DNA of 63,041 nucleotides, filler included, from Folioceros fuciformis (Eukaryota): assembly GCA_049999805.1 (NCBI GenBank). It is 32 parts of 32 records of this genome, joined end to end, with 100 filler letters (N's around TTAATTAATTAA, not from the genome) between each part and the next. Parts side by side here need not be neighbours in the genome. Positions count along the whole stretch, not along the records: positions 1,292 to 7,542 come from JBNGIO010003762.1; 31 more parts are not named here. One strand, written 5' to 3'. Made by a program: the position numbers and the translations under genes. Under the pieces are notes generated by a model that was not told where the DNA came from, did no database searches, and worked only from the letters and a program-made list of their open reading frames with translations. Positions 1,292 to 53,321 of this stretch are shown here, one piece after another (position 1 is the first letter of the stretch; every line of letters starts with the position of its first letter).

Positions 1292-1598
1292 GTTACCGAC
1301 ACCAAATTCTTCATCATTCTAGGGACATGAAGGGTGTCGGGTAACACAATTTCATTGCCAGATGGCAGCCTAAGAGGAACTGACCCTACTCCAAGGATGG
1401 GCAGAGCTCTATCATCCCCTACACGAATTGTCTGTCCATTTAGAACAGGTTTATATTGAGTGAAAGCCTCATGCTGATTGCAAACATGATGTGAAGCACC
1501 GGAATCTATAAACCAGCATCTCTTGTCCTCGTTTGAGGATACTAAACAAGTTGCTAGGATAGTACCGGTTTTCTTGACTGTAACAGTGTGTGACTCGG
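1292..1598 (-). mobile_element. Second Ty1/Copia protease fragment (paralogue of 1871-2177)
   Basis: WFIDSGASHHV motif; near-identical to the adjacent copy with scattered substitutions. Confidence 0.9.
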
Positions 1599-1698
1599 NN
1601 NNNNNNNNNNNNNNNNNNNNNNNNNNNNNNNNNNNNNNNNNNNNNNNNNNNNNNNNNNNNNNNNNNNNNNNNNNNNNNNNNNNNNNNNNNNNNNNNNN

Positions 1699-3234
1699 AG
1701 AGTGTGTGAGGTGTGCAGCTGCATGTATTCGTGAAGGTGTACACTCCAACTTATAAAGATCATTTGAAGGATAATCAATAGCCAGTAGCTGTCCATCTTG
1801 CTCGATGTGACATTCATCAGGTTTGGATTCAAACAGAATACGAACCCTAGGTAATGTAACCTTCATTTTGGTTACCGACACCAAATTCTTCATCATTCTA
1901 GGGACATGAAGGGTGTCTGGTAACACAATTTCATTGCCAGACGGCAATCTAAGAGGGACTGACCCTATTCCAAGAATGGGCAGAGCTCTATCATCCCCTA
2001 CACGTATAGTCTGTCCGTTTAGGCCAGGTTTATACTCAGTGAAAGCCTCATGTTGATTGCAGACATGATGTGAAGCACCTGAATCTATGAACCAGCATCT
2101 CTTGTCCTCGTTTGAGGATACAAGACAAGTTGCTAGGATAGTACCAGTTTTCTTGACTGTAACCGTGTGTGACTCGGCATTGGATCCTTCCCGCTTGGGT
2201 TCTCCGGCTGCCTTCTTACGACAGTCACGCTCAAAGTGACCTGGAATCTTGCACCAATTACAAGTTCCCTTTTTCTTCACACTGGATGACTTGGATTCTG
2301 AGATTCGCTTCCCTCCAGTCCTGCCGCTGGTCATGCGAGATCCCTTTCCTTTGAATGCATAAAGGGCTTGACTAGAGCTCCCCTCGTGTTTGCCTTCATG
2401 CCTACTACCATGTCGGGTGGCCTCTTCTTCTAATAGTGCACCAATAACCTCCGTGAGATTGCCTCCTCCGGTTGCTCGCATATTGTTGTTTTGCGAAGAT
2501 ACAAAGGTTCGATAACTGGAGGGCAGAGACATGAGTAGGGCTGTTGCAGCCTGTGTCTCATCCAGCTTGGTGCCGCATGCTGCCAAGTGTGCTCTAAGAG
2601 CTCGAAACTTATTTAGGTGAGCTTCAATTGGCTCATGTTCCTTCATCTTGAGATGCCAGAATGCCCTGGTTGAATTGACCATAGAAGCAGAGTTATTGAT
2701 TTGGAACATCTGATCAAAAGTCGACCACATTTCTGCAGCCGTGTCAAGCCCTTGCACGTGGTGCAACATATTCTTATCAAGACCTGCAACCAAGATGCTC
2801 CGAGCCCAGCGATCAGCCTTGGCCCAAGCCTCGATGTCAGCAGGTGGGGAACCAACTTGTGGTTTCACATTTGTTCCCAAGACTATATCCAGCAGATCCT
2901 GCTCTTCCAAAATGGTACGCAAGCGAATTGTCCAAACTTCATACTCGCTGCCATTGAAACAATCTCGATCCTTGAACTCGACCTTGAAATGTGTAACGGT
3001 TGTGTGTGCAGGTACCTGAGGTGCCTGACCACCACCACCACCGCCTCCTCCTCCTCCACCACCACTACCACCACTGCCTCCTCCTCCCCCTGGGGCTCCA
3101 GACATGCTTGATGCTGACTGAGACTTAGGGGTTGTTCTCAACGGAATCCTGAGGAGCTTTGATCTTTGTGGAGGTGTATGTGGTGTAGACGAGGACGTAG
3201 ACCCTCCTTCAGATGAGGGTGGTTGAGAGACCAT
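1699..3234 (-). CDS. gag-pol: Ty1/Copia gag-protease, 5' part of gag-pol, runs into gap
   Basis: ATG at 3234; poly-Gly N-terminus; Copia gag (FNGSEYEVWTIRL..., LLMSLPSSY); zinc knuckle CNWCKIPGHFERDC; protease WFIDSGASHH...LHVPRMMKNLVSV. Confidence 0.95.
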
Positions 3235-3247
3235 AACCTAAATGCAT

Positions 3248-3790
3248 CTACAGATCATAGGGAGACCCATTTGCAGATGCAGGTTCTGTCTTCCTAAGAA
3301 ACAGGTCTAATGCGATGAGGACATCTAGCAGACACTGTACCCTTCTATCCAGAAGATCTATCCTGCGGGAAATTGTGACCAACAGGTTTGTTGTATCTCT
3401 CCCCCGGTCTGCAGAAATACTTTCTGACCTTTGCTGTAATTTTGTGTGTACTTTTCCTTGCCAACTAAGCGACTGTAAGATGGCTAAGAGTTGAGACTGA
3501 TTGTGTCTGTAGGAACGCCTAGTTAAGTTCTGGCTGTGTTTAAAGCCCGGATAGCTACCGACAAATGTTTGATTCGGTGAACAGTGCAAGTGAGCACAAA
3601 GGTCACTTGTGCAGGCTGAGCACAACCTTGCTTGAGCGTTCCAACCAGCAATGTCTTCCACGATACTCCTCTGGTGAGAGCTCAAATTCTCCTCAACAGA
3701 TTGTAAGTCAACAGCAGGTGATGACTGGAAATTCGACTGTTTCCAGAAACGCTGATTCTGGCGTTGTCGATTCCAGCCTCGTCGAGGCAT
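3248..3790 (-). CDS. Extra ORF (180 aa) between PBS and gag of the Copia element, function unknown
   Basis: True ATG at 3790, uninterrupted, stop 13 nt before the gag ATG in a different frame. N-terminus MPRRxxxxQRQN is conserved at 53186-53221. Confidence 0.7.
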   Translation of the reverse strand: MPRRGWNRQRQNQRFWKQSNFQSSPAVDLQSVEENLSSHQRSIVEDIAGWNAQARLCSACTSDLCAHLHCSPNQTFVGSYPGFKHSQNLTRRSYRHNQSQLLAILQSLSWQGKVHTKLQQRSESISADRGRDTTNLLVTISRRIDLLDRRVQCLLDVLIALDLFLRKTEPASANGSPYDL

Positions 3791-3931
3791 GTTGAGGCTC
3801 TCCAGAAACGAGGTCCTCTATCCTAGGCGCCAGCTTCCTGATTTACACTTTCTGAAGACATGTAGCAAAACGTGGTGCATTCTCCAAGACTAAAAACAGG
3901 CATGTAGTGCAATTTTAGGAAGTTGCGACGT

Positions 3932-3943
3932 GCTCTGATACCA
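3932..3943 (-). promoter_or_regulatory. Primer-binding site, tRNA-iMet (TGGTATCAGAGC)
   Basis: Exact canonical plant PBS directly after the LTR. Confidence 0.95.
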
Positions 3944-4182
3944 TATCGCGGTACGGCTCGTAGGAGATTGAGGAACTAAGAGCATACGAGAGCAGAAAGA
4001 AAAGATTACATTAAGCTCATGCAAGCGGGGTATACAAAGCCAGCAGATTTGTCTACGAGAGGTCGCGACTACTACCCTAACCAACACGACCTGTGCCGAT
4101 TCGGTAATGACGATTAGCTAGGTCTTTAGCATGCGGCTATTTAAATATTTATTAAGGGGATAAACCCTATATGCCCGCGACA
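3944..4182 (-). mobile_element. Copia LTR, 239 bp, TGTCGCGG...CCGCGATA
   Basis: Terminal inverted motif; preceded on the minus strand by PPT AAGAGGGAG (4183-4191) and followed by the PBS. Confidence 0.9.
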
Positions 4183-4698
4183 CTCCCTCTTAGACGCTTG
4201 TGATTGACCTAGCCTGCACTTTCCGCCCGCCATCGTCAAATGTGTGAAATCACAGCGATGTTGCTCTTGATTCTGTGCTTGGCATTGAGCCTTGCATTTA
4301 GGAAACTCCTCGAACTCAGATGGCTGGCTTCCATTCAAACTGTAGACGCTGCAGTCCAAACCTCCTTTCCTTCAGATGTGAAGAATGAGAGTTACCTCAG
4401 CCGTGTTGACGGTGGAGATTGGAAGCCTACACAGGTAGACCCTGCAGCACAATATCTTGATAAGGAAACCTTGAATCTGAAAACACCCAGTATCTGAAGA
4501 TTACGCAGTTGCTGTACCTGGCAATTTCTGACCAAGCGCAGGTGTTCACAGAGCTACAGACTCTGACTGTGAATGCTCACAATAGGGACCTAAATCTCCC
4601 TCTAAATCTAGGATGTATGCTAGATGGTCAGACACAGAATGGGACACTGAGGGAAGAGCACATGCGTCAAGATAGACCTATGAGCCTCTCTAGTGTGG

Positions 4699-7542
4699 CT
4701 ACTGGAAGACATGGGGCAGAAATGGTGTGATGTCAACCATGCCTAGACTCTGAACATGTGACTCGTGCCTCTCCCTGCTTAGAGGTTTTGTGAGAAGATC
4801 AACATAGTTAGCATTTGTGGGAACATATGTGAGTGCCACTTCTTTGCGAGTGATGGCCTGTCTAACAAAGTGAAGATGCAAATCTATGTGCTTGGTTCGG
4901 GCATGATAGACAAGATTATTGGCCAACAGAAGTGCTGATTGATTATCACAGAACACTGGAGTGGGTTCTGTTTGCTCCTGGGATATGTCCGCCAGAAGCC
5001 TGCAATTAGAAACTGCTTCCTTACAGCTTTCAGCAGCTGCTCCATACTCAGCCTCAGTTGTGGAAGTACTCACAAATGTCTGTTTCTTCGATTGCCATGA
5101 GATGGCAGCTCTAGCAAGCAGAAAATAGTAAGCTGACACTGACCGTCTTGTATCTGGGTCCCCACCCAGTCTGCATCAGTGTATCCCTGTAGGAAAAGCT
5201 TCTTCATAGTATTGTCTTTACGGTAGCATAATCCTAGATTTCTGGTGCCCTTGAGATAACGCATAACTCGTTTTCCGGCAGTCCAGTGAGGTGTACCAGG
5301 ATTTTCGACAAACTGAGAAAGAGAACCACAGGCTTGGCTAAGGTCAAACCGTGTTCTAGTGGACAGATACAATGCAAACCCGACAAACTTCCGGTAAGGA
5401 ACAACTTGCATTGCAGCCTTCTCTTCATCAGTATTCGGACTGTCTAGCTTAGACAGGCGAGCACCAGCAGCCATAGGGGTACTCACAGATTTGGCATCCT
5501 CCATATTAAAGATCTTGAGCATCAAGTCAATGTAGTGTGCCTGATGTAGGAGAACCACCCCTTTGGCAGGTACAAGGTGAATTTGAACTCCTAGGAAGAA
5601 CCTAAGGATACCAAGATCTGTCATTTCGAAATGCTTTCGTAATAGACCTTTGACTTTCACAAGCAGCTCACTAGGGCTATTAGTGATCAGTAAAGCATCA
5701 TCAACATAGAGAGCTATAATGACAAAATTGTCACCGTTTGTGCAGAGATACACATTTGTATCTGCATCACTCTCCTTGAAACCCAAGGACTTAAGAAAGG
5801 TACTAAACTTCTGGAACCAAGCCCTAGGTGCTTGCTTTAGTCCATAGATGGTTTTGATAAGTTTGCATACATGATTTGGAAACTTTTTATCAACATATCC
5901 TTCAGGTTGCTGCATGTAGACATCTTCTTCTAATTCTCCATGCAGAAAAGCTGTTTTCACATCCATGTGATGCACAATCAGATCATTCTGAGCTACAAAG
6001 GCCATGAGCACACGAACTGAGGTAAACCTGACTACAAGAGAGAATGTTTCCTGGTAGTCCAGTCCTGGTCGCTGAGTGAAGCCTCGAGCTACCAGTCTAG
6101 CCTTCTTGCACGTGACAGCTTTTCTTCCAGCTGGTAAAGGCTCCAACTTCCATGTTCCATTTTGAACAAGACTATCATACTCTGATTTGATTGCTGCTTG
6201 CGAGTCTACTGCATGAGGTCCTAACAGGGCTTCTGACATTGTGGCAGGTTCTCCAACAAGCTCAGCAACAGAGAGTGCCTCAGCAATTAAAGATTGGATC
6301 GTAACAATCTGTGACTGTCCAGAGTCTTCATGGCTAACTCCCTTTGTAGATAACTCCACTGGCCTATACACAGCAGCTCCCTCTGAAGATGAGGGTTCAT
6401 CAACAGTAGGTATTGTCCCAAACTGTATAGGTTGATCAGGGACCTGTGTAGAATTATGTGCTGACGCACGAGTTGACCGCCTGAGAGCACGTAGGGAGTT
6501 GCTGGGTGGTGAATATGGACAGACTGTCCAGTTGTCTCTAGAAGGATGAGGTCTAGACGCCTGACGAGGTGCAGCCGGTGGCTCCTCATCACTAGATGAT
6601 TCCTCAGCAATATTCTGTGCGACTCCAGATTCTGATTGAGTCAGATGTGAAATAATTGATTGTGTCAGGGGTATACATCTCATCATCCTGATCTGATGAT
6701 GTTACAACCTGTGTGTCTGATTGCTGTATAGGTTTTGAGGTCATCTCAGTCACTTCGTTGCCCAAACTAGAAAGGTGATCATCATCTGGTTGTGACAGGC
6801 CTGAATCATCTGAGTCTGAATTTGTAGCTGCTTCGGGTGTAACTGAAGGAGTTGTTGACTGTTTTCCAGGAAGTGAAGTGGGAGCACGATTCAAAATCGC
6901 GTCTTCATTGAAGACAACACTCCTAGCATAAATTATCTTCCGATTTCTAGGATTGAACAATTTATATCCTTTTATCCCCTCAGAATAACCGACAAAGATA
7001 AATTTTTCAGCATTTGGTTGTAGCTTGCGTCTCTTCGCTTTTGGTATGAAAACATAGGGCGGACTACCAAACACCCGAAGGTGCAAGATTCTGGGTTTAT
7101 GTCCAGTCCACCTCTCAAACGGAGTGCTTCCAGGCACAGATACAATAGGCAATCTGTTTTTCACGTAGACTGCAGCTGCAACGGCCTCAGCCCAATATCC
7201 TAAGGACAGGCCTGCTTGAGCTAAGAAAGCCTTAGCCTGTTCCTAGAGTATGCCGTTACTTCTCTCAGCTATGGGATTCTGCTTCGACGTATAAGAAATG
7301 GTAAGTTGTCTAGAAATACCCAATTCTCTACACAGCTGCATGAAAGCGTTTGATCCATACTCACCTCCACCATCTGTCCTGAGTATTTTCAGTAGATGGG
7401 AAGTTTGACGTTGTGCATTTGCTAAGTAGTCCTTAAAATACCCTAATGTTTGTGATTTCTTGGATAGGAAATACACTATCGTGAATCTACTCCAGTTATC
7501 AATGAAGGAGAGGATATACTTAGCACCGCCAAAGGAGCGCTT
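4699..7542 (-). mobile_element. pol: Degenerate Ty1/Copia pol: integrase - RT - RNase H
   Basis: [81 protein letters not shown]. Has a stop and frameshifts, plus a deletion after AVTCK. Confidence 0.95.
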
Positions 7543-9234: not shown

Positions 9235-12200
9235 TATATAAATCTTATAATTTAATATTACTAGAATATTATAATTAATTCTTAGTTATCTAACTTAGAT
9301 ACTATACTTAAGACTACTTAGTTATCTTAACTTAGTTTATTAAACTTACTCTATCTATAAAACTTAACCTAAGTACTACTATACTTAATACCTATATCTA
9401 TTATATATCTTAAGTACTTTATATACTCTTAGGTATAGTTTATAATACTTTAATTACTCTTAAGATAAGTAACGCTAAAATAGATATACCTCTAGCTACT
9501 ATTACTAGTAATACTAGATATCTATCTAAACTAGTAAAGAAACTCGATAAGTATTATAGTAACTATTAGAAGTTAAAATAATAGATTATCTAGTAAGATA
9601 CTTACTTCTACTTTAACTCTAATATTAATACTAATAATTAAGTTATCTTAGTTACTATCNNNNNNNNNNNNNNNNNNNNNNNNNNNNNNNNNNNNNNNNN
9701 NNNNNNNNNNNNNNNNNNNNNNNNNNNNNNNNNNNNNNNNNNNNNNNNNNNNNNNNNNNGTATATAGATAATAATATTACTAATACTAATAATATAAAGA
9801 TATTTAAAGACTAGTTAGTTTTTAAAAACTACTTTAGAACTATCTTTAAAGTCTAAAAGAAAGAAGCTTAGATAGAATAATAAATCTAATATTTATAGTA
9901 GACTAAATTAGTTACTAAGTATACTACCTAATTCTAATAGATTTCTAATAGAATAAATTAGGATAATAATACTTTTAAAAGAATATTCTACTAAGAACTT
10001 AAGCTATAGATATATACTAAACTTATACGTAGTAGATTAAGTCTTAATATACTTAAAAAACTTCTTAATAAAAATATCTATATTAATAATAAGCTATATA
10101 AATTAGAGCTTAAGAAATAAAGCTTTTATTAATAAGATAACTTAGCTAATATAGAAAAAAGAAGATATACCTACTTCTAAGATACCTATAGAATATAGAC
10201 TATAGAATATTATATCTCTAGCTAACCTAAAGTAATATACTTAGATAATATTAATAAAGAAGATAAGAAATAAAAAAAATCTATAAAAAAGAGAGATAAA
10301 AATAATAAAAAGATATACTATAACTATAGTAAACTAGAGTACNNNNNNNNNNNNNNNNNNNNNNNNNNNNNNNNNNNNNNNNNNNNTTAATTAATTAANN
10401 NNNNNNNNNNNNNNNNNNNNNNNNNNNNNNNNNNNNNNNNNNCTATAATAAAGTTATTAGAATTATCTCTTAGTACTTTCTTTTCTTTCTCTAAAAAATA
10501 TATAGAGTCTATTATTAATTTTAATAGCTAGTTTAATAAGGCTAGTTAAGTTATTTAAATCTTCTAGCTAAAGTAGTTTATACTTAACTTAGTCTTTAAG
10601 TTTCTTATAGTATTATAATATTAAGGCTTTAGAGTCTTAGAATTAATTAGTTTTAAATTAATATTTATATTATAAATTATATTCGTAATAGTATAATCTT
10701 AAACTAAAATAATATAATATAATAAATATATTTATATATATAACTATAGACTAAGAAGTATATATAAAGATACTATATAGATATTATAAGAAAAGTATAA
10801 TTCTTTAAGTATAGAAAGTATTATATAGATTCTAAATATTACTTTTACTAAAGTAAAGAAAGTTTATAATAACTCTTAAAGCTCTAGAATTTATAGAAGT
10901 ACTATAAGAGCTATACTATATATTATAAGCTATACTTAAGAGTATACGAAGTACTTAAAATATACAATAAATATAGGTATTAGATATAGTAGTACTTAGG
11001 TTAAGTTTCGTAGATAAAGTAAATTTAATAGATAGAGTTAAAATAACTAAGTAGTTTTAAGTATAGTATTTAAGTTAGATAAATAAGTTAATTATAATAT
11101 TCTAATAATATTAAATTATAAGATCTATATANNNNNNNNNNNNNNNNNNNNNNNNNNNNNNNNNNNNNNNNNNNNNNNNNNNNNNNNNNNNNNNNNNNNN
11201 NNNNNNNNNNNNNNNNNNNNNNNNNNNNNNNATATATATACTACTTAGTCTAATTAGTATACTTAGTAGTACTAAGTACTACTAATTATTAAGTACTTAG
11301 TATTATATACTATATAGAGCTACTTTACTTAATTCTCTACTAATTATATACTTACTAAGTATATTACGTAATTATCTATACTATTTCTCTATAGCGTATA
11401 AGTATAAAGACTATAAGCCTTATATATAAGTTATTATTATACTAAGAGTTAGCTATAAGTAATTAGACTATATATACTAAAGTTTTAGTAGAGTACATTA
11501 TAAGTATATAGAGATTAAGTAAGTTAATAGTTAAAACTAAGTAGATAAGTAAGATAGTACGTAGAATATAATATTATNNNNNNNNNNNNNNNNNNNNNNN
11601 NNNNNNNNNNNNNNNNNNNNNTTAATTAATTAANNNNNNNNNNNNNNNNNNNNNNNNNNNNNNNNNNNNNNNNNNNNTAGATAAAACTCTATATAACCTA
11701 TTATATAAATAATAATATTACTAATTCTATAAATAATAAGATAATTAATAAATAGAGTATCTTTAAGAAGTAACTTAGAAAGGTATTTAAACTTTAGAAG
11801 AAAGAAGTAGTAGCTAAATAAGATATCTAATAACTTTAATAAACTACTTCTATCTTAGACTACGCTACTAAGTTCGAATTACTTAAAGTACAACTAAACT
11901 AGAATAATAACTCTCTTAAGAGAATATTTAAATAAGAGCTAAAAAACTAAGTATATAAGAAACTTATATACTTAAGAGCTATCTANNNNNNNNNNNNNNN
12001 NNNNNNNNNNNNNNNNNNNNNNNNNNNNNNNNNNNNNNNNNNNNNNNNNNNNNNNNNNNNNNNNNNNNNNNNNNNNNNNNNNNNNGTCTAGAGTAACTTA
12101 TAGAAAAAAGTATTTAAATTAATAATAAGCTCTATAAGTTATATCTTAAAAAATAAAGCTTCTATTAAAAAAAAGATATAGATAAGAAAAGAAACTACTT

Positions 12201-15200
12201 TATAAAGCTTATATAAGATTATACTATAAGATATTATATATCTAACTAATCTAAAGCTATATATATTAATAAGGACCTTTATAATATTAACTATAAAAAA
12301 AAAAAATAGAGAAAGCTTATAAATAAAGAGAATAAAGATAATACTAAGATATACTATAACTATAGTAAACCTAGATACTTTACTAGAAACTATAAATCTA
12401 AGAATAAAGTAATATATTATATTAGTAGTATAATAGGTAGAGAAGGCTATAATATCTTTAACTAAATACTTAACGTTCTCTTCTATATAGAGAATAAGAA
12501 TAAGAAAAATTACTAAACTATTATAATACTACCTACGTCTAAACTAGATAGAAACTCTATACTAGATAGTATATTAGAACTAAATAGAAACTCTATTATA
12601 GAGATAACCTAAGAATTATATAGTAATATAGAAATACTTAGTAATTAAGTTAACTAGGTAAGAATCTAGAATAGTAATAGATAGTATACTAAAGAAAATA
12701 AAGAAAATATTTTACTAGATATAAATAAATAAAATACTTCTAAAGATACTATAAACTACTAGAACTTTATATAGTAGTACTAATAAGAAGATATNNNNNN
12801 NNNNNNNNNNNNNNNNNNNNNNNNNNNNNNNNNNNNNNTTAATTAATTAANNNNNNNNNNNNNNNNNNNNNNNNNNNNNNNNNNNNNNNNNNNNATCTAC
12901 GAGTAATAAGATTATAGATATAGTTAACGATTTATACGTAGAGCTAAGTAAGATATAGCTAGAGTATAATTAGCTAAATACATAACTAGTTAGTAATTAG
13001 TAATTAGCTATAGTTAGTTTTTTACTAACTATAGATTACTTAAAACCTATATAGCTATAATTACCTAGATAGAACTCTATAGTTAAGATACTTAGTTTCT
13101 TAGAAGTATCTCTAAATATACTATTATAATATTATATTCTACGTACTATCTTACCTATCTACCTAGTTCTAACTATTTACTTACTTAACCTCTATATACT
13201 TATAATATTTCTACTAAGACTCTAGTATATATAGTCTAATTACTTAGAACTAACTCTTAGTATAATAATATAAAGAGTAAATATTAACTAATAATATATA
13301 ATAGTAGGTACTCTACTATTAATATACTAGTACTAAAATAAAATATCTTTTATTCTAAGAAACTAAAGAAAAGAAGTAGTATTATAAATATAATTTATAA
13401 TATAAATATTAACTTAAAATTAATAGACTCTAAAATATCTAACTATAAATCTATAAAAGATAAAATTATAAATATAGTTAATAACCTATATATAAAGCTA
13501 AGTAAAGTATAGCTAGAGTATAATTAGCTAGATATATAACTAATTTATAATTTATACTTTATAATAATTTATAANNNNNNNNNNNNNNNNNNNNNNNNNN
13601 NNNNNNNNNNNNNNNNNNNNNNNNNNNNNNNNNNNNNNNNNNNNNNNNNNNNNNNNNNNNNNNNNNNNNNNNNNGTTATAATTATCTAGATAGAACTTTA
13701 TAGTTAAAATATTTAGTTCTTTAGAAATATCTATAAATATCCTTTTATAATATTATATTCTATATACTATTTTATCTATTTTTCTTTAGTTTTAGCTATT
13801 AATTTACTTAATCTTTATATACTTATTATATACTTTACTAAAACTCTAGTAAGTATAGCCTAATTTTCTATAGTTAACTATTAGTATAATACTTTACTTC
13901 TAATATTATAGAGTCTTTAAGTACTAAAGTATAGTTTTCTAGGTTTTTTAGTTTACTATTAGTTTCTAGTCTTATAAAGCTTATTTATTAAACTATATAA
14001 TTTATTCTAAAAAGGTCTTATTATTAAATTTATTCTTAACTTTCTAGTTTAGGTATTTTATATATAGCTAGTATATATATACTTACTAATTAAAGTTCTA
14101 GTAGTTTCTATTAACTATAATATACTAATATATGTTTTATTTAGATTTTTATTTTAGAAAGAAGTTTATACTTCTCTTATTCTATAGATACTATCTATAT
14201 CTATTATTATAATAATTATACTATTACTATTTATACTTTTCTTTAAATATTAGAAAGTAGCTACTATTCTACTTAGTCTAGTAGTAGATTTTTTAAGTAT
14301 TATAGTAATAAAACTTATAGTTTAGAGAATTATAAGTTAGATTTTAATAGTTATTATTATAGTAAGAATATTCTATATAGTAAGTTAGTTTATATATTAT
14401 AGAGATAGTAAGTCTATTTTNNNNNNNNNNNNNNNNNNNNNNNNNNNNNNNNNNNNNNNNNNNNTTAATTAATTAANNNNNNNNNNNNNNNNNNNNNNNN
14501 NNNNNNNNNNNNNNNNNNNNGTATATAATCTAGTCTAAGAGATAGAAGAGTAGAAATATTAAAATTTTAAGTTTTAAGAGTATATAGAGTATAATTTTAA
14601 TCTTAATACTATATTAAAATTAAGTAGAAGAGAAATTAAAAAAGAGAACTTTTTACTAGAAGTAAATAGTTATTACTTTTTAAACTCTCTTTCTTTTTTT
14701 TTTTTTCTTTTTCTACTTTTTTTTTTTCTCTATCTTTCTTATTCTCTTTATCTATCTCTAATTCGTTCTTTTTTTTATATTATTAAAGTATAATTAGCTC
14801 TCTTATACTTTATATCTACTACTAGATTTAGCTTTATTTACTACTTAGTAGGTATCTTTCTTTATAGTAATATTACTAGGTAAAGTATTAAAACTAATAA
14901 ATTATATTTAATACTTTCTAGTTTAGTATTTACTTACTTATTAAAGAGTATAATTATATATTTCTTCTAAGTATTATTAATCTACTCTAAAAATAGAAAC
15001 TCTATTAGTNNNNNNNNNNNNNNNNNNNNNNNNNNNNNNNNNNNNNNNNNNNNNNNNNNNNNNNNNNNNNNNNNNNNNNNNNNNNNNNNNNNNNNNNNNN
15101 NNNNNNNNNTCTTCTAAGTATTATTAATCTACTCTAAAAATAGAAACTCTATTAGTAGTTTATACTTCTCTATTAAAGCTAAGAATAATAGCTTAATTTT

Positions 15201-15709
15201 CTATACTATATCTACTATATTAGAATTATACTTAGTAATTATTTTAATCTACTATTCTACTCTTATCTATATTATATTTTTCTTAATCTACTAATTTATA
15301 ATTATACTCTTTAGTAGTAAACTAAAAATCTCTATACTATTAAAGTACTCTTTTAAAAGATTCTATCTCTTACTTTAATCTAGAAAATTTCTAAATATTT
15401 TCTATAAGTCTATATTACTAGCCTTATTAGGTATTTAGCTATTATTAAACTTAAATATAATCTAGAAGAGATAATCTTTTATAAGATTCTTATATCTATA
15501 TTCTCTAGTACTAGTTTTTTAATCTACTTTATAAATTTTATTTTCTAGCTTCTTATACTCTATATATAGAGTATTAAATTTCTAGTACTAATATATCTTC
15601 TTTTATATACTATCTACTTTACTTTTCTATATATTTATAAACTTATACTTAAATCTCTTACGCTATAAAATAGTAAGGCCTATACTATTAATATTATTTT
15701 AGTTTTACT
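9235..15709. mobile_element. Five scaffolds of RIP-degraded fungal repeats, including Ty3/Gypsy gag remnants (non-host DNA)
   Basis: Very AT-rich, TpA-saturated, CpA/TpG almost absent. Copies differ mostly by transitions. Gag and zinc-knuckle motifs are recovered on reversing C>T/G>A. Confidence 0.85.
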
Positions 15710-21849: not shown

Positions 21850-22360
21850 TTGATGTAGTCGTTTCCGTCATTGCCGTAGAAGCTGTCCGCATAATCTCCA
21901 CCAACGAACCGATCCGCAAATTCTGTACCGTTGGCGTTCAGCCGCTCGATTCCCTTGACGCTGCCGGCGAGAGCGCCGCCGAGCACAATGGACCCGTCGT
22001 CGTGCATGATTGCTATTCTGGGCTGATCATCCTGTTCGGAAGGCCAGATAAGGAGAAAGACGACACCGCTTCCCCCGTCTATATCCAATACACCACCGGT
22101 TTCGAAGATGGTATCGTCACCCCCCTTCCCACGCACGACATCGTTGCCGGTACCAAGCTCAAGATAGTCGGCTCGGCTTCCGCCAGTGATCACATCGCCT
22201 GCATCCGTACCTTTATAGTTCAGCTTTTCGGCGCGGGTCAGAACATCCCAGTCTCGACCACCGGCCTTGACGGTAAAGTTTCCATCGCCGAAATCCAGCG
22301 AGACGGACGCGACATTCCCATTCGCAAGCCTGTTGCGCCAGACGATGAAAACGGTGTCAG
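21850..22360 (-). CDS. Internal fragment of a bacterial RTX/haemolysin-type calcium-binding repeat protein
   Basis: One frame open across all 511 bp: GTDAGDVITGGSRADYLELGTGNDVVRGKGGDDTI...GIERLNANGTEFADRFVGGDYADSFYGNDGNDYI (GGxGxD-type nonapeptides); no introns; CpG-rich. Confidence 0.85.
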
Positions 22361-22370
22361 NNNNNNNNNN

Positions 22371-22881
22371 TTGATGTAGTCGTTTCCGTCATTGCCGTAG
22401 AAGCTGTCCGCATAATCTCCACCAACGAACCGATCCGCAAATTCTGTACCGTTGGCGTTCAGCCGCTCGATTCCCTTGACGCTGCCGGCGAGAGCGCCGC
22501 CGAGCACAATGGACCCGTCGTCGTGCATGATTGCTATTCTGGGCTGATCATCCTGTTCGGAAGGCCAGATAAGGAGAAAGACGACACCGCTTCCCCCGTC
22601 TATATCCAATACACCACCGGTTTCGAAGATGGTATCGTCACCCCCCTTCCCACGCACGACATCGTTGCCGGTACCAAGCTCAAGATAGTCGGCTCGGCTT
22701 CCGCCAGTGATCACATCGCCTGCATCCGTACCTTTATAGTTCAGCTTTTCGGCGCGGGTCAGAACATCCCAGTCTCGACCACCGGCCTTGACGGTAAAGT
22801 TTCCATCGCCGAAATCCAGCGAGACGGACGCGACATTCCCATTCGCAAGCCTGTTGCGCCAGACGATGAAAACGGTGTCAG
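22371..22881 (-). other. Exact duplicate of 21850-22360 across a 10-N gap (assembly artefact)
   Basis: Same length and ends, and no difference seen. Confidence 0.85.
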
Positions 22882-23036
22882 NNNNNNNNNNNNNNNNNNN
22901 NNNNNNNNNNNNNNNNNNNNNNNNNTTAATTAATTAANNNNNNNNNNNNNNNNNNNNNNNNNNNNNNNNNNNNNNNNNNNNCCTCTGTACTTAAAATTTT
23001 ATTTTGAAAGATCCTCAACTCTTCAGAAGGAAAAAA

Positions 23037-29623: not shown

Positions 29624-30568
29624 TTAGTTATCATCCTCTAACCTGTCAATATATTTGTCGTAGAACTTGGCTGCTGTTTCTAAGTCTCCTAGTTCCGTGT
29701 AGCAATCTGCAATAGCGCCATAAGCTTCCGTGTCTCCTGAATGTTCTCCAGTGCTATTCGAGACATCAAGGACAATAGAATGGTATTTGATCGCTTCTCG
29801 ATACTTACTTTGCCTTTGGCAGGATGCCCCCATTCCCCTGGCGGCCTTCTTTTCCTCCACAGGGTCTCCTAATTTTCTGGCAAGAGCCAATCCTTGCTCG
29901 AACTCCGCGAACGCTAATTCTGGCTTCTGCTCCCGTAGCCATTTCTTGCCTGCTCTCAGCTTCTGCATCAGCTCGTCGTTCGGACCATCTCCGATCCTGG
30001 GAGAGTCCAGGCGGCCCGCTCCAATTCCCACCGGAGCGTACTTCAGCCCCGGAGCATACGATTCCACCCGCACCTGTCTCCTCAGGTTGACGTTGATCTG
30101 CCGCAGCTGTGAATTGATGCGTTCAAGCTCCACCTTTCTCTGCCGCGCCAGAGTTCCCCCCACGGCCGCTCCTACCAGCGCAACGGCCTCTACCACGCAC
30201 GCCACCGCGATGACGAAGTCCATGTCCCAGCTGCTTGTGCTCTGAGCCACCACCTCAGCTCCCGAGGCATATCCTGCTGTACGAGCTGCTGTCAGAAGCC
30301 CCAGGCCGGCTCCCGCAACAATGACCTTTGCGGCAGCACCTGCCCGCCGTCCTGGCTCGAGAGCGCAGCATCGTACACTCGCTTGCCTCCGCAACCACCG
30401 CACACCGTTTGAACCATCCACCGCGCCGTGGAAGCATCTCCTGTTCCGATGGAGGTTCCAAGCACCCTGTGTTACCAACGACTGTCCAACATTTCTCACC
30501 TTCCCACTGTAAAGCTCCACCTGCAGATGGACCGAGCAGCAGGAGCATAGGGCAGCGGCCTCCGCCAT
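29624..30568 (-). CDS. FLU: FLUORESCENT IN BLUE LIGHT, chloroplast TPR repressor of ALA synthesis, 314 aa, single coding exon
   Basis: ATG at 30568; transit-peptide-like N-terminus; TM VEAVALVGAAVGGTLARQRK; coiled coil LRQINVNLRRQ..ESYAPGL.YAPVG; TPRs EEKKAARGMGASCQRQ.KYREAIKYH, SGDTEAYGAIADCYTELGDLE.A.KFYDKYI. Confidence 0.93.
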   Translation of the reverse strand: MAEAAALCSCCSVHLQVELYSGKVRNVGQSLVTQGAWNLHRNRRCFHGAVDGSNGVRWLRRQASVRCCALEPGRRAGAAAKVIVAGAGLGLLTAARTAGYASGAEVVAQSTSSWDMDFVIAVACVVEAVALVGAAVGGTLARQRKVELERINSQLRQINVNLRRQVRVESYAPGLKYAPVGIGAGRLDSPRIGDGPNDELMQKLRAGKKWLREQKPELAFAEFEQGLALARKLGDPVEEKKAARGMGASCQRQSKYREAIKYHSIVLDVSNSTGEHSGDTEAYGAIADCYTELGDLETAAKFYDKYIDRLEDDN

Positions 30569-31069
30569 AGCCCTAGCCAAACCACCTGCAGACTGCTGTT
30601 CTGCTACACAACGGAAACAGCTTTCCTGCCACGCAATTTTACGTGAGAAAAACTTCTAACATCTGGTGTCCTATGATTCTCAGTCACTGGCCCCATCAAG
30701 AGGAAGCTGCTGAAAACCTACCACCGAAGATGAAGCTGCTAACCTACCCGCCGAACGTGGATTCGATCCGCTGTGGCAAACTGTGAGAGGCTAGGACGAT
30801 TGTGTTCCTGACGCAAGTGCTAAACGTGTGCACTGCACACAGCAGTCTAAGCTTGAGGAGGAAGGGAGTGTGTCCATTCCAATCCTACATGTTCTGAATT
30901 GTGGGAACAGCACCCGGCCAACTGTTGTTAATTACACTTAAGATTGTCAATAACTGTCTTCCATGACAGAACTAGGCCACGAGAAGCGGAACAAATCGAA
31001 GAGTCTTAGGAAGAGAATTCTCGCATGGATATGAAGGCCCCATGTTTGGACAGGTCAGGATATGGATTC

Positions 31070-32464: not shown

Positions 32465-34498
32465 TTAATCTACAGTGTTTAGATTTCTGATTTGACCAAA
32501 TACTGTTGCCAGCATGGAGTAAATCTGCTTGCGTTCGGGATGGTCTTGATCTTCTACCACAAAAGTATGGACCTGACTTTCTAGCTCAAGCCAAGTGCGA
32601 CCTGGTTCTTTCCTCACACCTGACATGAGCATCTGGTTTCTGATATCCGCTTTGGCTTCCAGCTGGCCAGCACCATGGAAGATGTTTGCCATCATAACGT
32701 AAGCGGCACTGTTGGTTGGATCAGCCTCGACGATAGACCTGAAAGCCCGCTTTCCAAGCTCCACGTTCACATGGGTTTGGCATGCAGCAAGTAGCGACAA
32801 CCACACCACTCCATCGGGTTCTGATGGGAGTTGTTTTATCAGACCTTCTGCTTCTGAAAGATACCCAGCTCGGCAAATGAGGTCAACAAAGCAAGCGAAG
32901 TGCTCCTTTCCTGGAGTCAGTCCAAAATCTTCGGACATGGACTGGAAGAGGGAATAAGCCTCGTCAAGTAGACCTGCTCGGCTGCAGGCAGACAGCAATG
33001 ATACAAATGTTATGGTACTTGGCTCAATGCCTTCAGTTTTCATTCTCTGAAAGAGCTGAATTGCCTGGTGCACACCACCATGCTGAGCATATGCAGCGAT
33101 CATTGCTGTCCAGATGACGGTGTCCCTTGTCAGCAGCCTGTCAAACACCCTCTCTGCTTCCTCAAGGCTACCGCATTTGGCATACATGTCGATGAGGGTG
33201 CTAGAGATGTAGGGGTCAGATTCACAACCCGTGAGAATGGTCTTCACGTGTACAGCCCGTCCTTCTTGGAGGGCTGCAACAGTGGCACATGCCCTAAGGG
33301 TGCTGGAGAGAGTGATCACATCTGGCTGGACACCTTCTTGCTCCATCTGCTTAAATAGTTGGAGAGCGTCTTGACCATTGCCATGCTGCACATATCCTGT
33401 GATCATCGCATTCCAGGACACTAGGTTTCTGATCGACATGTCAAAGACTTTGCGAGCATCCTCAAGGCTCCCACACCTTGCATACATGCCAATAAGTGCA
33501 CTGCTGAGGAAGACGTCCGATTCCAGCTTAGCTCCCACAATGTCAGTGTGGATCAGTTTGCCCTGATCAAGAGCCATCACAGTGGAACACGCTTTCAGCA
33601 CACTAGAAAGTATGATGGCGTCCGGATGCATGCCCTGCCTTCGCAGGTCATGAAATAGTTGGATAGCCTCGTCTCCATCTCCTTGCTGAACATAACCTAC
33701 AACCATAGCAGTCCATGACACAAGGTTCTTGGTCGACAACCTGTCAAACAGTTGACGTGCCTCTTTTAGGCTGCCACATTTGGCATACATGTCAATGAGG
33801 GCACTGGCAACGAACACGTTGAGCTCCAACCCACCTTCCCTGGCGTGGCCGTGAATCAACCTGCCCTCTGCCAATGCTGCAGCAGTTGTACAAGCTTGAA
33901 TAACAGCCACAAAGACGTATTCATTGGGCTCCACATTAGACTGTTGCATGCAGCGATACAATTTGAGGGCATCCTCACTCCGTCCATACTTTGCATTTGC
34001 AGAGACAATTGAAGCCCACGCAAAGACGTCAGGAGCAGGTAGTTTCACAAAAGCCTGGTTTGCCTCGGTCAAACTCCCACATGCAGCAAACATACGCATC
34101 ACGTGGGCTCCCAAGAAGTTGCTGGACTCAAATCCTCTCCTAATGATAAGCCTGTGCACTCGCCTGCCAAATGCCAGGTGCTTATGCTTGATGCACGCCT
34201 CCAGAAGTCGGTACAACCTGTATGTAGTGTAGGCACCGATGCCTTGCCGATCCACAAGCTCCACGGCCTGCAACACCTCGTCCAGATGGCCATCCTCGCA
34301 TAGGCTAACCAGACCTCCAACTGAAAGTCTGCCCACTCTGCCAGACAGGGTAGCAAAATCGGGCCCTTGCCCAAGGCTTCTGGGAACACGACAAGGATCT
34401 GAAGCTGCCGACCGGTCACTCACAGTGCTGTAATGATGTGCTGGAACAATCCAATGGATCAGGAGACGAGCAGAGGATGCACATCGAGCCAGGCACAT
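32465..34498 (-). CDS. PLS-class PPR protein, E+ subclass (organellar RNA-editing factor type), 677 aa, intronless
   Basis: First ATG at 34498 (the track start 34522 is GTG). About five P-L-S triplets ending P2-L2-S2, then E1, E2, PG box KEPGRTW and HPE; stops before the DYW deaminase core. Confidence 0.95.
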   Translation of the reverse strand: MCLARCASSARLLIHWIVPAHHYSTVSDRSAASDPCRVPRSLGQGPDFATLSGRVGRLSVGGLVSLCEDGHLDEVLQAVELVDRQGIGAYTTYRLYRLLEACIKHKHLAFGRRVHRLIIRRGFESSNFLGAHVMRMFAACGSLTEANQAFVKLPAPDVFAWASIVSANAKYGRSEDALKLYRCMQQSNVEPNEYVFVAVIQACTTAAALAEGRLIHGHAREGGLELNVFVASALIDMYAKCGSLKEARQLFDRLSTKNLVSWTAMVVGYVQQGDGDEAIQLFHDLRRQGMHPDAIILSSVLKACSTVMALDQGKLIHTDIVGAKLESDVFLSSALIGMYARCGSLEDARKVFDMSIRNLVSWNAMITGYVQHGNGQDALQLFKQMEQEGVQPDVITLSSTLRACATVAALQEGRAVHVKTILTGCESDPYISSTLIDMYAKCGSLEEAERVFDRLLTRDTVIWTAMIAAYAQHGGVHQAIQLFQRMKTEGIEPSTITFVSLLSACSRAGLLDEAYSLFQSMSEDFGLTPGKEHFACFVDLICRAGYLSEAEGLIKQLPSEPDGVVWLSLLAACQTHVNVELGKRAFRSIVEADPTNSAAYVMMANIFHGAGQLEAKADIRNQMLMSGVRKEPGRTWLELESQVHTFVVEDQDHPERKQIYSMLATVFGQIRNLNTVD

Positions 34499-34954
34499 GT
34501 GTGTATGGTCATTCCCTTCCACGGACCACGCCGGACAGTGTTCCAGCCACTCTACAACCGTCCTTCACCCGACAACGATCAGTGCGGGGGGCACCGTTCA
34601 GCATCCGATTCCCCTCCGCCATGACCAGCCTCCCAACCTCAACCTGGGAACAAATCCCACAATCAACCCTTCGAAGCAAATACAGAGACAGTCCGTACAG
34701 TAACTCCGAGATTCTCCAGTTGTAAACCCTGCTTACTCGGGGCGACCGAGGTTGCTGGATGCTACATATAACGAGCACCGGGGAAGTCAGGTCTGCAATG
34801 CTTTTACAATACTGGCCGTACTGTTGCGAGAGGCTGGTGCCAGCGCACCGTTGCGGAGCGGCGGATCAGAAGAATTTGAAGGGCAGGACGGATCTGAAAT
34901 TTGTGAATTTGGTTTGAGCACAATCGGCACGGGGTAGGGTTGCGGACGGGCGAG
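34499..34954. promoter_or_regulatory. Probable bidirectional promoter and 5' UTRs (456 bp between divergent ATGs)
   Basis: Head-to-head gene arrangement; CpG-rich; no specific elements identified. Confidence 0.5.
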
Positions 34955-35791: not shown

Positions 35792-36721
35792 TAGCAGCCG
35801 TGTCGGCCGACACAGCATATTCGTTGATGAGGCTGACTGCAAGCATGTCTGCAAAAGGATTCACACATAGTTTGATTCACAGTTTAGTTCAGTCACAATT
35901 CTCCCTGACATAGTGAGTACTTTTCCTCCTTCACTTGTGTCTGATATTTCAGCCTGTTCGATTGACTGGGTCGACCGCTAAGTATAGTTTTATACCTTTA
36001 CAGGTCCCTTCTCCAGGGGCCAATGAATGCGCAGAATGTTTTCAGACAGGGTGACTGCGACTTTTCATGTCGGTGGCAGGGTCCATGCACTTGGTAAACA
36101 ATTGAGGTTGAGAGAGTTTTCTCTTCCATTCCATGGGAAGGTTTTCTTTTATTTTCAGAGCAGCGCGGCTCGAATGTGATTATACAATCTCAAATATGAC
36201 CTACTCTCGACGCCAGGTAATCAAGGCAAGAATTATCACCTCTTCTCGGATTATGTTCCCGCTAGCCTATTTTGGAATCAGTCCACCTTCGGGCTGCACA
36301 TCGCACAGATCTTTCAGATATCCCCGGGGAGCACCCGGAGATGACAGGTATGTATAATATGAAAGAGTCTGTAGTATCCTTACAATGGACCCAGAGACTG
36401 TATACGATAGGAACACTCAATGTCATCTCTGCTGCTAGCTGACTGCGAAGATAACCATTGGAAATCTACCATTATTGTCCCAAACATGAATAAGAAAGAA
36501 CAATCATAAGTGGTCAATGAGTGGTCTGAATGCCTTGACGAAAGAATGACCGATTTTGAAGCACTATGTCAAGGGTGTAGCGATCCCGTCGTCTAGAAGT
36601 CCTGCGAGTTCCAGTTATCCCTGCCGAGGCCAGATTCAATGGACATCAGGAAACGTTTATTTGATATTCGACATTAAAAATATTGGAGACAATTCACTTG
36701 ACCACTTCAGGCAAAGGGAAC

Positions 36722-37534
36722 TCACAAGAAAAACGAAGAGGGAGCAGGGGCGGGGACATCCGCGTCACTGAAGGTATCGTCCAAGACGGCCAAAGACCTC
36801 CTTCCCTGCTGACTGTTGGAAGCGCAGAGCTGGGGCAGGTAGATACCTGGAAATCCGAGTAAAACAGAGTTAGATGATTTCTCGAATCCAATGGTCTCTT
36901 GCGTATAGCCATGCAGGAAAACCTTCGAGCAGTACCTTCTCCTGCAGCCAACTTGATGTACAGGTCCAAAATGTTGTGGCAAGAGCCCATGCATGCAGAG
37001 GAGCACAGCTTGCTCAATGCATCGACATCCAGAAGCTCATCGGTGGACAGTCCGAAGGTCATGCGGGAAAGGCCGCAAGCTTCAATGCACTCGTCGGTCT
37101 CGATCCATTCCACAGCCTTATCGGCGACGACAACAGACGACTGCAGAAGTGGAAAGATTTAGGAAAAGAACTTGACCGGCGATACATCCGCTCGGCTTGG
37201 CTGGATTTTAACTGAAATGAGCTTCATTGAGGAGGAAAAGTTAGATGAGCACCTGGCACTCCAACCGGGTGACTCCATCAGGGGAGTACACTTTCTCCAG
37301 CACACAGCGAGCACCGCTAGACGAAACCGAGAAGGCGCAGTCCTCAACTAGCAGCTCCTCGCACTGCAGTGCCCCTGCACGTTCCCAGAAACAATGCGTT
37401 AAAAGAAATGAACGGCGGTCCGTTGAAGGTCAAAAATGAACTCGCCAGAGCGAAACGGGAGAAGTCGTACCGTATGAGAAGGAGGCCGACGCCAGGACCA
37501 CAACCAGGAACAGCACGATGCACGAGCGAGCCAT
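36722..37534 (-). CDS. PAR1 (photoassimilate-responsive) family secreted Cys-rich protein, 171 aa; exons 37534-37471, 37374-37253, 37140-36936, 36846-36722
   Basis: Signal peptide MARSCIVLFLVVVLASASFS; CEEL..EDCAFSVSSSGARCVLE; IETDECIEACG; KLCS.AC...C.NILDLY.KLAAGEG.YLP.LC; introns 96, 112, 89 nt. Confidence 0.9.
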
Positions 37535-52489: not shown

Positions 52490-52779
52490 GGCTCTTCTTT
52501 AACTTGCACACCATATTCTCTTTGCCCTTCTCCATGAAACCCTCTGGTTGCTGCATGTATACCTCTTCTTGGAGATCACCATGCAGAAATGCCGACTTCA
52601 CATCCATCTGGACAAGTTCCATGTCGTGCTTTGCAACCAGACCAAGAACACATCGCAAGGTGGTCATTTTGACAACTGGTGAGAAAATCTCATCAAAGTC
52701 AGTACCTTGCTGTTGCTTAAAACCCTTAGCAACCAATTGCGCCTTATACTTGGGTTTGCCATAATGGGGTATGTCCTTC
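52490..52779 (-). mobile_element. pol: Copia RT fragment, interrupted by the LTR at 52780
   Basis: VAKGFKQQQGTDFDEIFSPVVK, MDVKSAFLHGDL. Confidence 0.9.
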
Positions 52780-53221
52780 TGTCGAGGGCCTAAGTGTTTG
52801 GGCCTTAGGCATTAAGTAGCCGCATATCATAACCTAAACCTAACCGCCACCAGGACCAACCGTTGCCGGGTATGACGGTTGAGTCAAGGGACACGTCCCT
52901 AGACCTGGACGTGTCCGCTGACCCTTATGTATCACGCTGCTCGCGTGAGCTAATCTAATCTTGTCTTTCTGCTAGCATGCATATGATCTCTAGTTTTTTT
53001 GCCTATCTCCTATGTTGCCATAATGCGATATGGTATTAGAGCCATTAATCGCTTTTTTCTTGGCCTGCATCTCGCCTGAGAATGGATTCTTGGAGAATGC
53101 ACAATCTCGTGAGCATTCATCTTAGAAGAGCAGGTCAAGACGTTAGCATCTAGGAGAGATCGCAGCGCCTCTCAAGGCCTGCATCATGCCTCGACGCGAT
53201 CGAAGATCCCAACGCCAGAAT
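52780..53221 (+). mobile_element. Copia 5' LTR (52780-53030, TGTCG...GCGATA), PBS-Met (53031-53042) and start of extra ORF (ATG 53186)
   Basis: Diverged relative of LTR 3944-4182; TGGTATTAGAGC; MPRRDRRSQRQN. Confidence 0.85.
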
Positions 53222-53321
53222 NNNNNNNNNNNNNNNNNNNNNNNNNNNNNNNNNNNNNNNNNNNNTTAATTAATTAANNNNNNNNNNNNNNNNNNNNNNN
53301 NNNNNNNNNNNNNNNNNNNNN

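Follow-up and report, generated by a model that had tools for sequence, protein, structure and literature searches.

A possible additional open reading frame between the primer-binding site and gag of a Ty1/copia element in an assembly of Folioceros fuciformis

The DNA analysed here (the window) comprises 63,041 bases of the Folioceros fuciformis assembly GCA_049999805.1 and consists of 32 short scaffolds joined by N44-TTAATTAATTAA-N44, for example at 53222-53321. On the minus strand of the scaffold at 1292-7542, a Ty1/copia element is laid out in the order pol pieces, about 0.5 kb without an open frame, purine run, long terminal repeat (LTR), primer-binding site (PBS), leader, an open reading frame designated ORF0, and gag-protease (Table 1). 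The ATG of ORF0 is located at 3790, 153 nt from the PBS start at 3943. Its stop codon, TAG at 3250-3248, is followed after 13 nt by the gag ATG at 3234, and the gag frame is +1 relative to that of ORF0. ORF0 thereby holds the position of a 5' additional ORF (aORF), being in the sense orientation, between LTR/PBS and gag and outside the polyprotein frame.

Table 1. Positions of the features of the ORF0-bearing element and of the second copy, counted along the window.
Feature	Position	Strand	Remarks
ORF0 (P0001)	3248..3790	minus	180 codons from ATG, TAG stop
ORF0-gag spacer, 13 nt	3235..3247	minus	ATG in ORF0 frame (3247), TAG in gag frame (3240-3238)
gag-protease ORF	1699..3234	minus	broken off at a scaffold gap of 100 N (1599-1698)
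Short upstream ORF, 20 codons and stop	3818..3880	minus	ends 27 nt before ORF0 ATG
PBS, TGGTATCAGAGC	3932..3943	minus	directly adjoins LTR end
Single LTR, 239 nt, TGTCGCGGG...GCGATA	3944..4182	minus	alignment with second copy
Purine run AAGAGGGAG, polypurine-tract-like	4183..4191	minus	abuts LTR start
pol pieces in three different frames, upstream of LTR	4702..7242	minus	Pfam and frame listing
Second copy	52780..53221	plus	LTR 52780-53030, PBS from 53031, scaffold 50216-53221
Short upstream ORF of second copy, 18 codons	53097-53153	plus	ends 32 nt before ATG

The assignment to Ty1/Copia made in a first-pass annotation of this DNA was confirmed by Pfam. The ORF starting at 3234 matched Retrotran_gag_2 (5.7e-33) and Pol_BBD (7.3e-46), as a Copia-type gag/protease does. 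The pol pieces comprise the SH3-like part of integrase (SH3_retrovirus, 7242-6607, minus strand), an RVT_2-type reverse transcriptase (3.5e-66; 6686-5073, minus strand) and the RNase H/C-terminal part (5175-4702, minus strand), so that integrase lies ahead of reverse transcriptase; pol is situated beyond the LTR and is assumed to belong to the same copy as ORF0. Relatives of the reverse transcriptase were 31-48% identical among the best 120 matches listed, and came from plants, oomycetes, an arachnid and metagenome contigs. The pol frame is broken near 6604-6701 and 5070-5175, which reflects either a decayed copy or assembly errors.

The PBS is TGGTATCAGAGC, which we take to be a match to initiator tRNA-Met. 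Most Copia elements use tRNA-Met as primer, in the excerpted text of the REXdb survey (PMC6317226). The start of the LTR was placed where similarity to the LTR of the second copy begins. A purine run stands directly before this LTR, and therefore the 3' end of an element, and not host DNA, precedes it. The contig has one LTR in the order polypurine tract-LTR-PBS, where a complete element would have two; this could represent a tandem junction, a circle junction or the collapse of two LTRs during assembly. The ORF0-bearing element cannot be called intact or young. Around the 100-N gap in gag-protease, the same protease-region peptide, ESHTVTVKKTGTILATCLVSSNEDKRCWFIDSGASHH..., is encoded on both sides (1292-1598 and 1699-2000, minus strand) with few differences, which suggests that two copies or alleles were joined during scaffolding.

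The gag ORF itself is extended at its N-terminus. Its conserved core begins at residue 93, versus residues 15-17 in two related polyproteins, and the residues before the core form a Ser/Pro/Gly-rich extension with a poly-Gly run. The poly-Gly tract is encoded by a (GGT)n/(ACC)n run at 3028-3074, where contigs of the same sample seem to be broken. About 1 kb separates the PBS from the gag core in this element; in Copia elements this distance is usually a few hundred bases.

The remainder of the window is heterogeneous. Most scaffolds carry an internal 100-N gap, their GC content ranges from 0.18 to 0.62, and the assembly is fragmented and probably mixes organisms. Pfam was run on 24 of the 55 stop-to-stop frames of at least 150 codons in the window, and several Copia fragments, a PPR protein and a PAR1 protein were matched. 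The longest scaffold encodes a PPR protein of 699 aa, without introns and provided with E and E+ motifs (32468-34564, minus strand), together with a PAR1-family frame (36697-37158, minus strand) and a TPR frame (29627-30655, minus strand). Together these frames, the PPR protein being of the PLS class, presumably point to a land plant. Five consecutive scaffolds at 9235-15709 have 18-20% GC and, read with the standard code, contain no frame of at least 150 codons; they might stem from an organelle, a symbiont or a contaminant. A frame with RTX calcium-binding repeats (HemolysinCabind, 8.7e-09) at 22241-22933 (minus strand), on a scaffold of 56% GC, looks bacterial, from contamination or an associated microbe.

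The dimensions of ORF0 given by the first-pass annotation, namely a length of 180 aa, distances of 153 nt from PBS to ATG and of 13 nt from stop to gag ATG, and a separate frame, were all reproduced, and the three peptide motifs it had listed are present in the translation. These are an Arg/Gln-rich N-terminus (MPRRGWNRQRQNQR), a Cys/His cluster at residues 57-70 (CSACTSDLCAHLHC) and a Leu-rich C-terminal stretch (LLVTISRRIDLLDRRVQCLLDVL). The product is net basic with 18 Arg, and four of its five Cys fall, with two His, inside 14 residues. Part of the DNA encoding this cluster consists of a short direct repeat, TTGTGCTCA, which occurs twice; no tandem repeat was found within ORF0. Counted from stop to stop, the frame has 189 codons (3817-3248, minus strand), and the remaining five frames of the same stretch are open for at most 83 codons. 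Several AUGs lie ahead of ORF0 and four more ahead of gag; these, like the broken pol nearby, count against ORF0 as a working gene.

At the junction, the ORF0 stop (3250) comes before the stop of the gag frame (3240), and for this reason a single indel cannot fuse ORF0 and gag. A fusion by programmed frameshifting in this copy was rejected as well, since the order of the stops leaves the two frames without overlap. No protein in which ORF0 is fused to gag was found among the longer proteins searched or in the scan of representative proteins. Both the order of the stops and this absence count in favour of a separate additional ORF.

Relatives of the ORF0 product were sought in several collections. 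Pfam gave no family at E ≤ 1, and the Pfam domains of extra ORFs in gypsy elements (PF10536, Transposase_28 PF04195 and Athila ORF-1 PF03078) did not match ORF0. In a word-indexed protein search, none of 47 candidates of near length and none of 605 among longer proteins scored. HMMER, run against 1.84 billion representatives, returned two matches (E 4.6e-6 and 3.5e-5), which were judged spurious: they cover 26-35 residues and fall on repeat units of bacterial-looking proteins of 1448 and 1563 aa. PDB sequences contained no relative, and the ESM Atlas gave no usable match, at a recognition value of 1658, under the level reached by most real families. Metagenome, prokaryote-genome and viral contigs searched with the ORF0 protein, and metagenome contigs searched with a two-motif pattern of the leader, yielded nothing, these collections being poor in plant DNA. 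The blank is not just a matter of coverage, because plant Copia polyproteins are present in the protein libraries; it is tempered by the fact that transposon leaders are rarely annotated as genes. Capture of a host gene as the origin of ORF0 was considered and rejected, as no similar protein appeared in the searches. A scan for bacterial promoters and terminators, which are not relevant to a eukaryote, found nothing.

AlphaFold2, run on the single sequence, gave an all-helical model of ORF0 with a mean pLDDT of 45.4 and a pTM of 0.28. Helices were predicted at residues 91-125 and 131-168 with pLDDT 50-56, and the model is too weak for a fold search.

A second, diverged copy is found on another scaffold. 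Its ATG, at 53186, is followed by MPRRDRRSQRQN, 12 codons that run to the scaffold end at 53221. The position of this ATG, 155 nt from the PBS start, and the divergence of the relative had both been reported from the first reading of the sequence and were reproduced. The two copies align end to end, with 139/254 identical positions in the LTR, 74/141 in the leader and 260/468 overall; LTRs and leaders of the two scaffolds are thus 52-55% identical. No purine tract is found ahead of the second copy's LTR, which therefore resembles a genuine 5' LTR located where the element inserted. The sequence before it (50216-52779) is unrelated and includes a 196-codon frame on the opposite strand (51898-52485) without a Pfam match.

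The two LTR-PBS-leader stretches share six blocks in which 11 or more of 12 positions match. Those in the LTR and PBS are a TATA-adjacent block, one further LTR block and the LTR end with the PBS; those in the leader are the start of a short upstream ORF, the ORF0 ATG with codons 1-4, and codons 9-12. The upstream ORFs of both copies begin in an identical 15-nt block and their peptides are not conserved. Within the conserved ORF0 blocks 8 of 8 third positions agree between the copies, and the four codons between the blocks are all replaced (G/D, W/R, N/R, R/S). Judged from two sequences, the blocks at the ORF0 start look as much like nucleotide motifs as like protein constraint. The 12-codon match is by itself not significant (tblastn E = 8.3) and counts only through its aligned position; tblastn and blastn searches within the window returned only ORF0 itself, this 12-codon fragment and a 116-nt LTR/PBS match. 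Taken together, the aligned ATG, the blocks and the upstream ORF are the best evidence that initiation at the ORF0 ATG matters. ORF0 had initially been called a conserved gene; conservation is shown for the start region only, the second copy comprising 12 codons. RNA structure as the cause of the conserved blocks was considered and not supported: the RNAalifold consensus of the two leaders was weak (-13.65 kcal/mol over 192 columns), and Rfam gave no match at E ≤ 0.1 for the leader.

Two readings of ORF0 deserve most attention. The one tentatively preferred here, with confidence somewhat short of even, is that ORF0 is a real, fast-evolving, family-specific 5' additional ORF of a land-plant Ty1/copia element. 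The other, held at almost the same confidence, is that the leader of this family is expanded, measuring about 0.7 kb to the gag ATG or about 1 kb to the gag core, and that ORF0 is an unselected frame within it, either open by chance or coding until recently (captured or arisen de novo, and now drifting). Under the latter reading the conserved blocks at the ATG would be cis-acting RNA or DNA signals of the leader and not traces of a protein. That these blocks are nucleotide-perfect while all codons between them are replaced agrees with this, as does the fact that ORF0 is without relative, domain or confident fold; the weak consensus RNA fold and the empty Rfam result give no structure that would explain the blocks, which argues against it.

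The length of the frame speaks to both readings. When the mononucleotides of the 709-nt leader were shuffled 20,000 times, a frame of 189 codons was attained in 0.0001 of the shuffles. At one predefined place, in sense between PBS and gag, a frame of the length of ORF0 is surprising, and this probability of about 1e-4 counts against an unselected frame. Anywhere in the window it is not very surprising. By a rough, uncomputed estimate, a few tenths of a chance frame of at least 189 codons would be expected per 57-kb window, and the many unannotated frames of at least 150 codons that exist in the window also favour an unselected origin. The body of ORF0 contains three ATGs in any frame versus 7.1 expected (P(≤3) = 0.034). 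The ORF0 ATG is followed by a run of 466 nt without ATG (P = 0.0012 in 5000 dinucleotide shuffles), a feature spotted post hoc; this run and the conserved position of the ATG are unlike drifting DNA.

Codon usage was scored with a table built from the Copia and host ORFs of the window. ORF0 scored 0.038-0.055 bits/codon when read in its own frame, and both other frames gave negative values. The coding controls, 540-nt windows of Copia ORFs scored by leave-one-out, beat ORF0 in 12 of 12 cases (0.124-0.283), which favours an unselected frame. The ORF0 value of 0.055 is nevertheless above the composition-matched stop-free null of -0.040 +/- 0.045 (P = 0.019, 3000 shuffles). The signal is intermediate: a gene that is young or evolves fast would fit it, and so would DNA that was coding until recently.

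Further evidence came from contigs of the same sample. The ORF0 stretch is present in two DNA runs of one sample, at 0.96 and 0.70 of sampled words, and these runs may be the assembly's own source. Run contigs match the window with 0 differences over 3092-3616, 3213-3777 and 3779-4190. At least two other versions of the ORF0 stretch occur in the sample contigs. One differs at 59 letters and by 2 gaps in 361 nt (3417-3777), and a further version aligns in blocks only, with joints at 3330>3432, 3495>3554 and 3772>3917; that other versions are gapped and can be aligned only piecewise favours an unselected frame. A loose contig end at 3222 belongs to another copy, in which the TAG, the gag ATG and the 13 nt of spacing between them are the same; at 3240, its gag frame has TGG in place of TAG.

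Of the 40 differences listed of 1017, gag accounts for 18, ORF0 for 3, and the LTR together with the 3' part for 19; two of the gag rows were dropped as they occur only in the bisulfite-like run X3. The three best-supported ORF0 differences in this set, F15S, D28A and V44G, are all second-position and non-synonymous. Synonymous changes make up 14 of 16 in gag versus 0 of 3 in ORF0 (Fisher P = 0.010, from the same 40 listed of 1017), which again favours an unselected frame. Gag is visibly under purifying selection among the sample copies, and ORF0, on three sites only, shows no such sign. Run X3, a third run of the same sample, has C>T at 212 and G>A at 205 positions over 1699-5070, as in a bisulfite or enzymatic-conversion library, and could reveal the methylation state of the element. 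The one run presumed to be RNA, X4, contributed 0 contigs, a result without bearing on expression.

If ORF0 is an additional 5' ORF, as is tentatively preferred, the genomic RNA would be bicistronic. Ribosomes would first pass the short conserved upstream ORF and then arrive at the ORF0 AUG, 27 nt beyond its end. Gag could be reached by ribosomes that skip the ORF0 AUG and then meet no AUG for 466 nt; reinitiation, or a spliced or shorter transcript, would be alternative routes. The encoded protein would be small and basic, mostly helical or disordered, and quick to evolve, and its Arg-rich N-terminus might, as a guess, act on nucleic acid or in the nucleus to the benefit of the element. It is rather unlikely that ORF0 is, beyond this, a genuine pre-gag cistron for a small Arg-rich Cys/His protein, retained in two families despite near-saturated divergence of their LTRs and leaders, and translated from a bicistronic RNA by way of the conserved upstream ORF and the AUG-free body. 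Were that true, Copia would have its first characterised pre-gag gene, and the protein could be considered a candidate for regulating element RNA or host silencing.

A further explanation, which we consider improbable, is that ORF0 is a detached N-terminal extension of Gag. The ATG at 153 or 155 nt from the PBS would then be the ancestral gag start, and ORF0 and the first 92 gag residues (Ser/Pro/Gly-rich) would once have been a single extension, later split by mutations at the junction in this copy or its subfamily. A PBS-to-gag distance of 153-155 nt is ordinary, which suits this idea. From the start of the gag core at residue 93, versus 15-17 in the related polyproteins, it follows that about 1 kb was added between leader and gag core, a point in favour of this explanation. 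The breaks in the neighbouring pol frame, by which the contig is not pristine, and the TGG in place of TAG at 3240 in another copy, which opens the gag frame further upstream, point the same way. It is opposed by the junction, where each frame has a stop and the order of the two stops precludes fusion by a single indel, and by the recurrence of the ORF0 stop and spacing in another copy. Neither the search of longer proteins nor the representative scan revealed a protein that joins an ORF0-like part to gag.

The zinc-binding, silencing-suppressor reading first suggested for ORF0, a special case of the additional ORF in which the product is a small Cys-rich, basic, coiled-coil RNA-binding protein resembling the silencing suppressors of plant viruses, is very improbable: it draws on composition (net basic, 18 Arg, clustered Cys/His), on the low-confidence helices predicted at 91-125 and 131-168 and on similar ideas floated for Tekay 5' aORF proteins in the excerpted text of PMC11728184, and it meets with no Pfam similarity, including zinc knuckles and viral proteins, no PDB chain, a low-confidence AlphaFold model and a Cys/His cluster part of which sits on the direct repeat TTGTGCTCA.

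The choice between the two leading readings has consequences beyond this element. Extra ORFs are common in plant Ty3/gypsy elements, and almost none has a known function. If ORF0 is selected, 5' accessory genes arose independently in both superfamilies, and the element offers a compact 180-aa case for gag translation behind another ORF and for the roles of such proteins. If it is unselected, the element has an ordinary long leader, and serves as a warning that the long ORF of one copy is no gene.

Extra ORFs have been described on either side of gag-pol, with the stretch from pol to the 3' LTR as the commonest site, and an aORF is expected in all or most copies of its family (excerpted text of PMC7264820). 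ORF0 is represented by one full copy, one 12-codon start and two further versions in the sample contigs. With 180 codons (189 stop to stop), it falls below the 250-codon minimum of the REXdb survey, although it is free of tandem repeats, as that survey also requires. The survey scored 5' forward eORFs as a class in both superfamilies and counted 582 Copia elements with an eORF of this minimum length or more, falling into 45 similarity groups; the 3' forward eORF of SIRE is the only one it calls characteristic of a Copia lineage (PMC6317226). A full-text literature search, supplements of PMC6317226 aside, returned no characterised pre-gag gene in Copia. The 5' ORFs of Ogre, Retrosat-2 and Tekay, as far as described in the excerpted sources, are all of Ty3/gypsy elements (PMC2533021, PMC4093653, PMC11728184, PMC12786077). 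The literature statement of the first-pass annotation, which placed 5' ORFs in the gypsy lineage Ogre and env-like 3' ORFs in SIRE, was broadly right, with Tekay to be added.

The env-like eORF-3'F of SIRE resembles ORF0 in being an extra Copia ORF of obscure function, and is described as highly heterogeneous (PMC6317226, in part). Unlike ORF0, it follows pol and precedes the 3' LTR; its length is much greater, and predictions often make its product a transmembrane protein. The leaders of plant pararetroviruses are long and AUG-laden, contain only short ORFs and are passed by shunting or reinitiation. A possible likeness in translation lies in a short conserved upstream ORF followed by putative downstream initiation. 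ORF1 of Ogre (Ty3/gypsy Tat) is, like ORF0, an extra sense ORF upstream of gag, and is a feature of the Ogre lineage in the text available from PMC2533021 and PMC6317226. It differs from ORF0 in its length of about 1.5 kb, in often containing PF10536, whereas ORF0 is without a Pfam match, and in belonging to giant gypsy elements.

A close parallel is found in the Tekay chromoviruses (rice Retrosat-2 ORF0, RIRE3/8 and sunflower Tekay group 2), in which a sense ORF likewise lies between the 5' LTR/PBS and gag. The sunflower Tekay aORF is reported in 500 of 523 family members, whereas ORF0 is known from one full copy. The Tekay elements are Ty3/gypsy and their proteins have about 400 aa, as against Copia and 180 aa here, and the two were compared by description only. 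In the excerpted accounts, the Tekay aORF proteins are, like the ORF0 product, orphan, biased in composition, provided with a basic (NLS-like) stretch and mostly disordered with few helices (PMC11728184, PMC4093653). With the same tentative confidence as attaches to an additional ORF in general, ORF0 may correspond, within Copia, to the orphan 5' aORFs known from the Tekay and Ogre elements of Ty3/gypsy.
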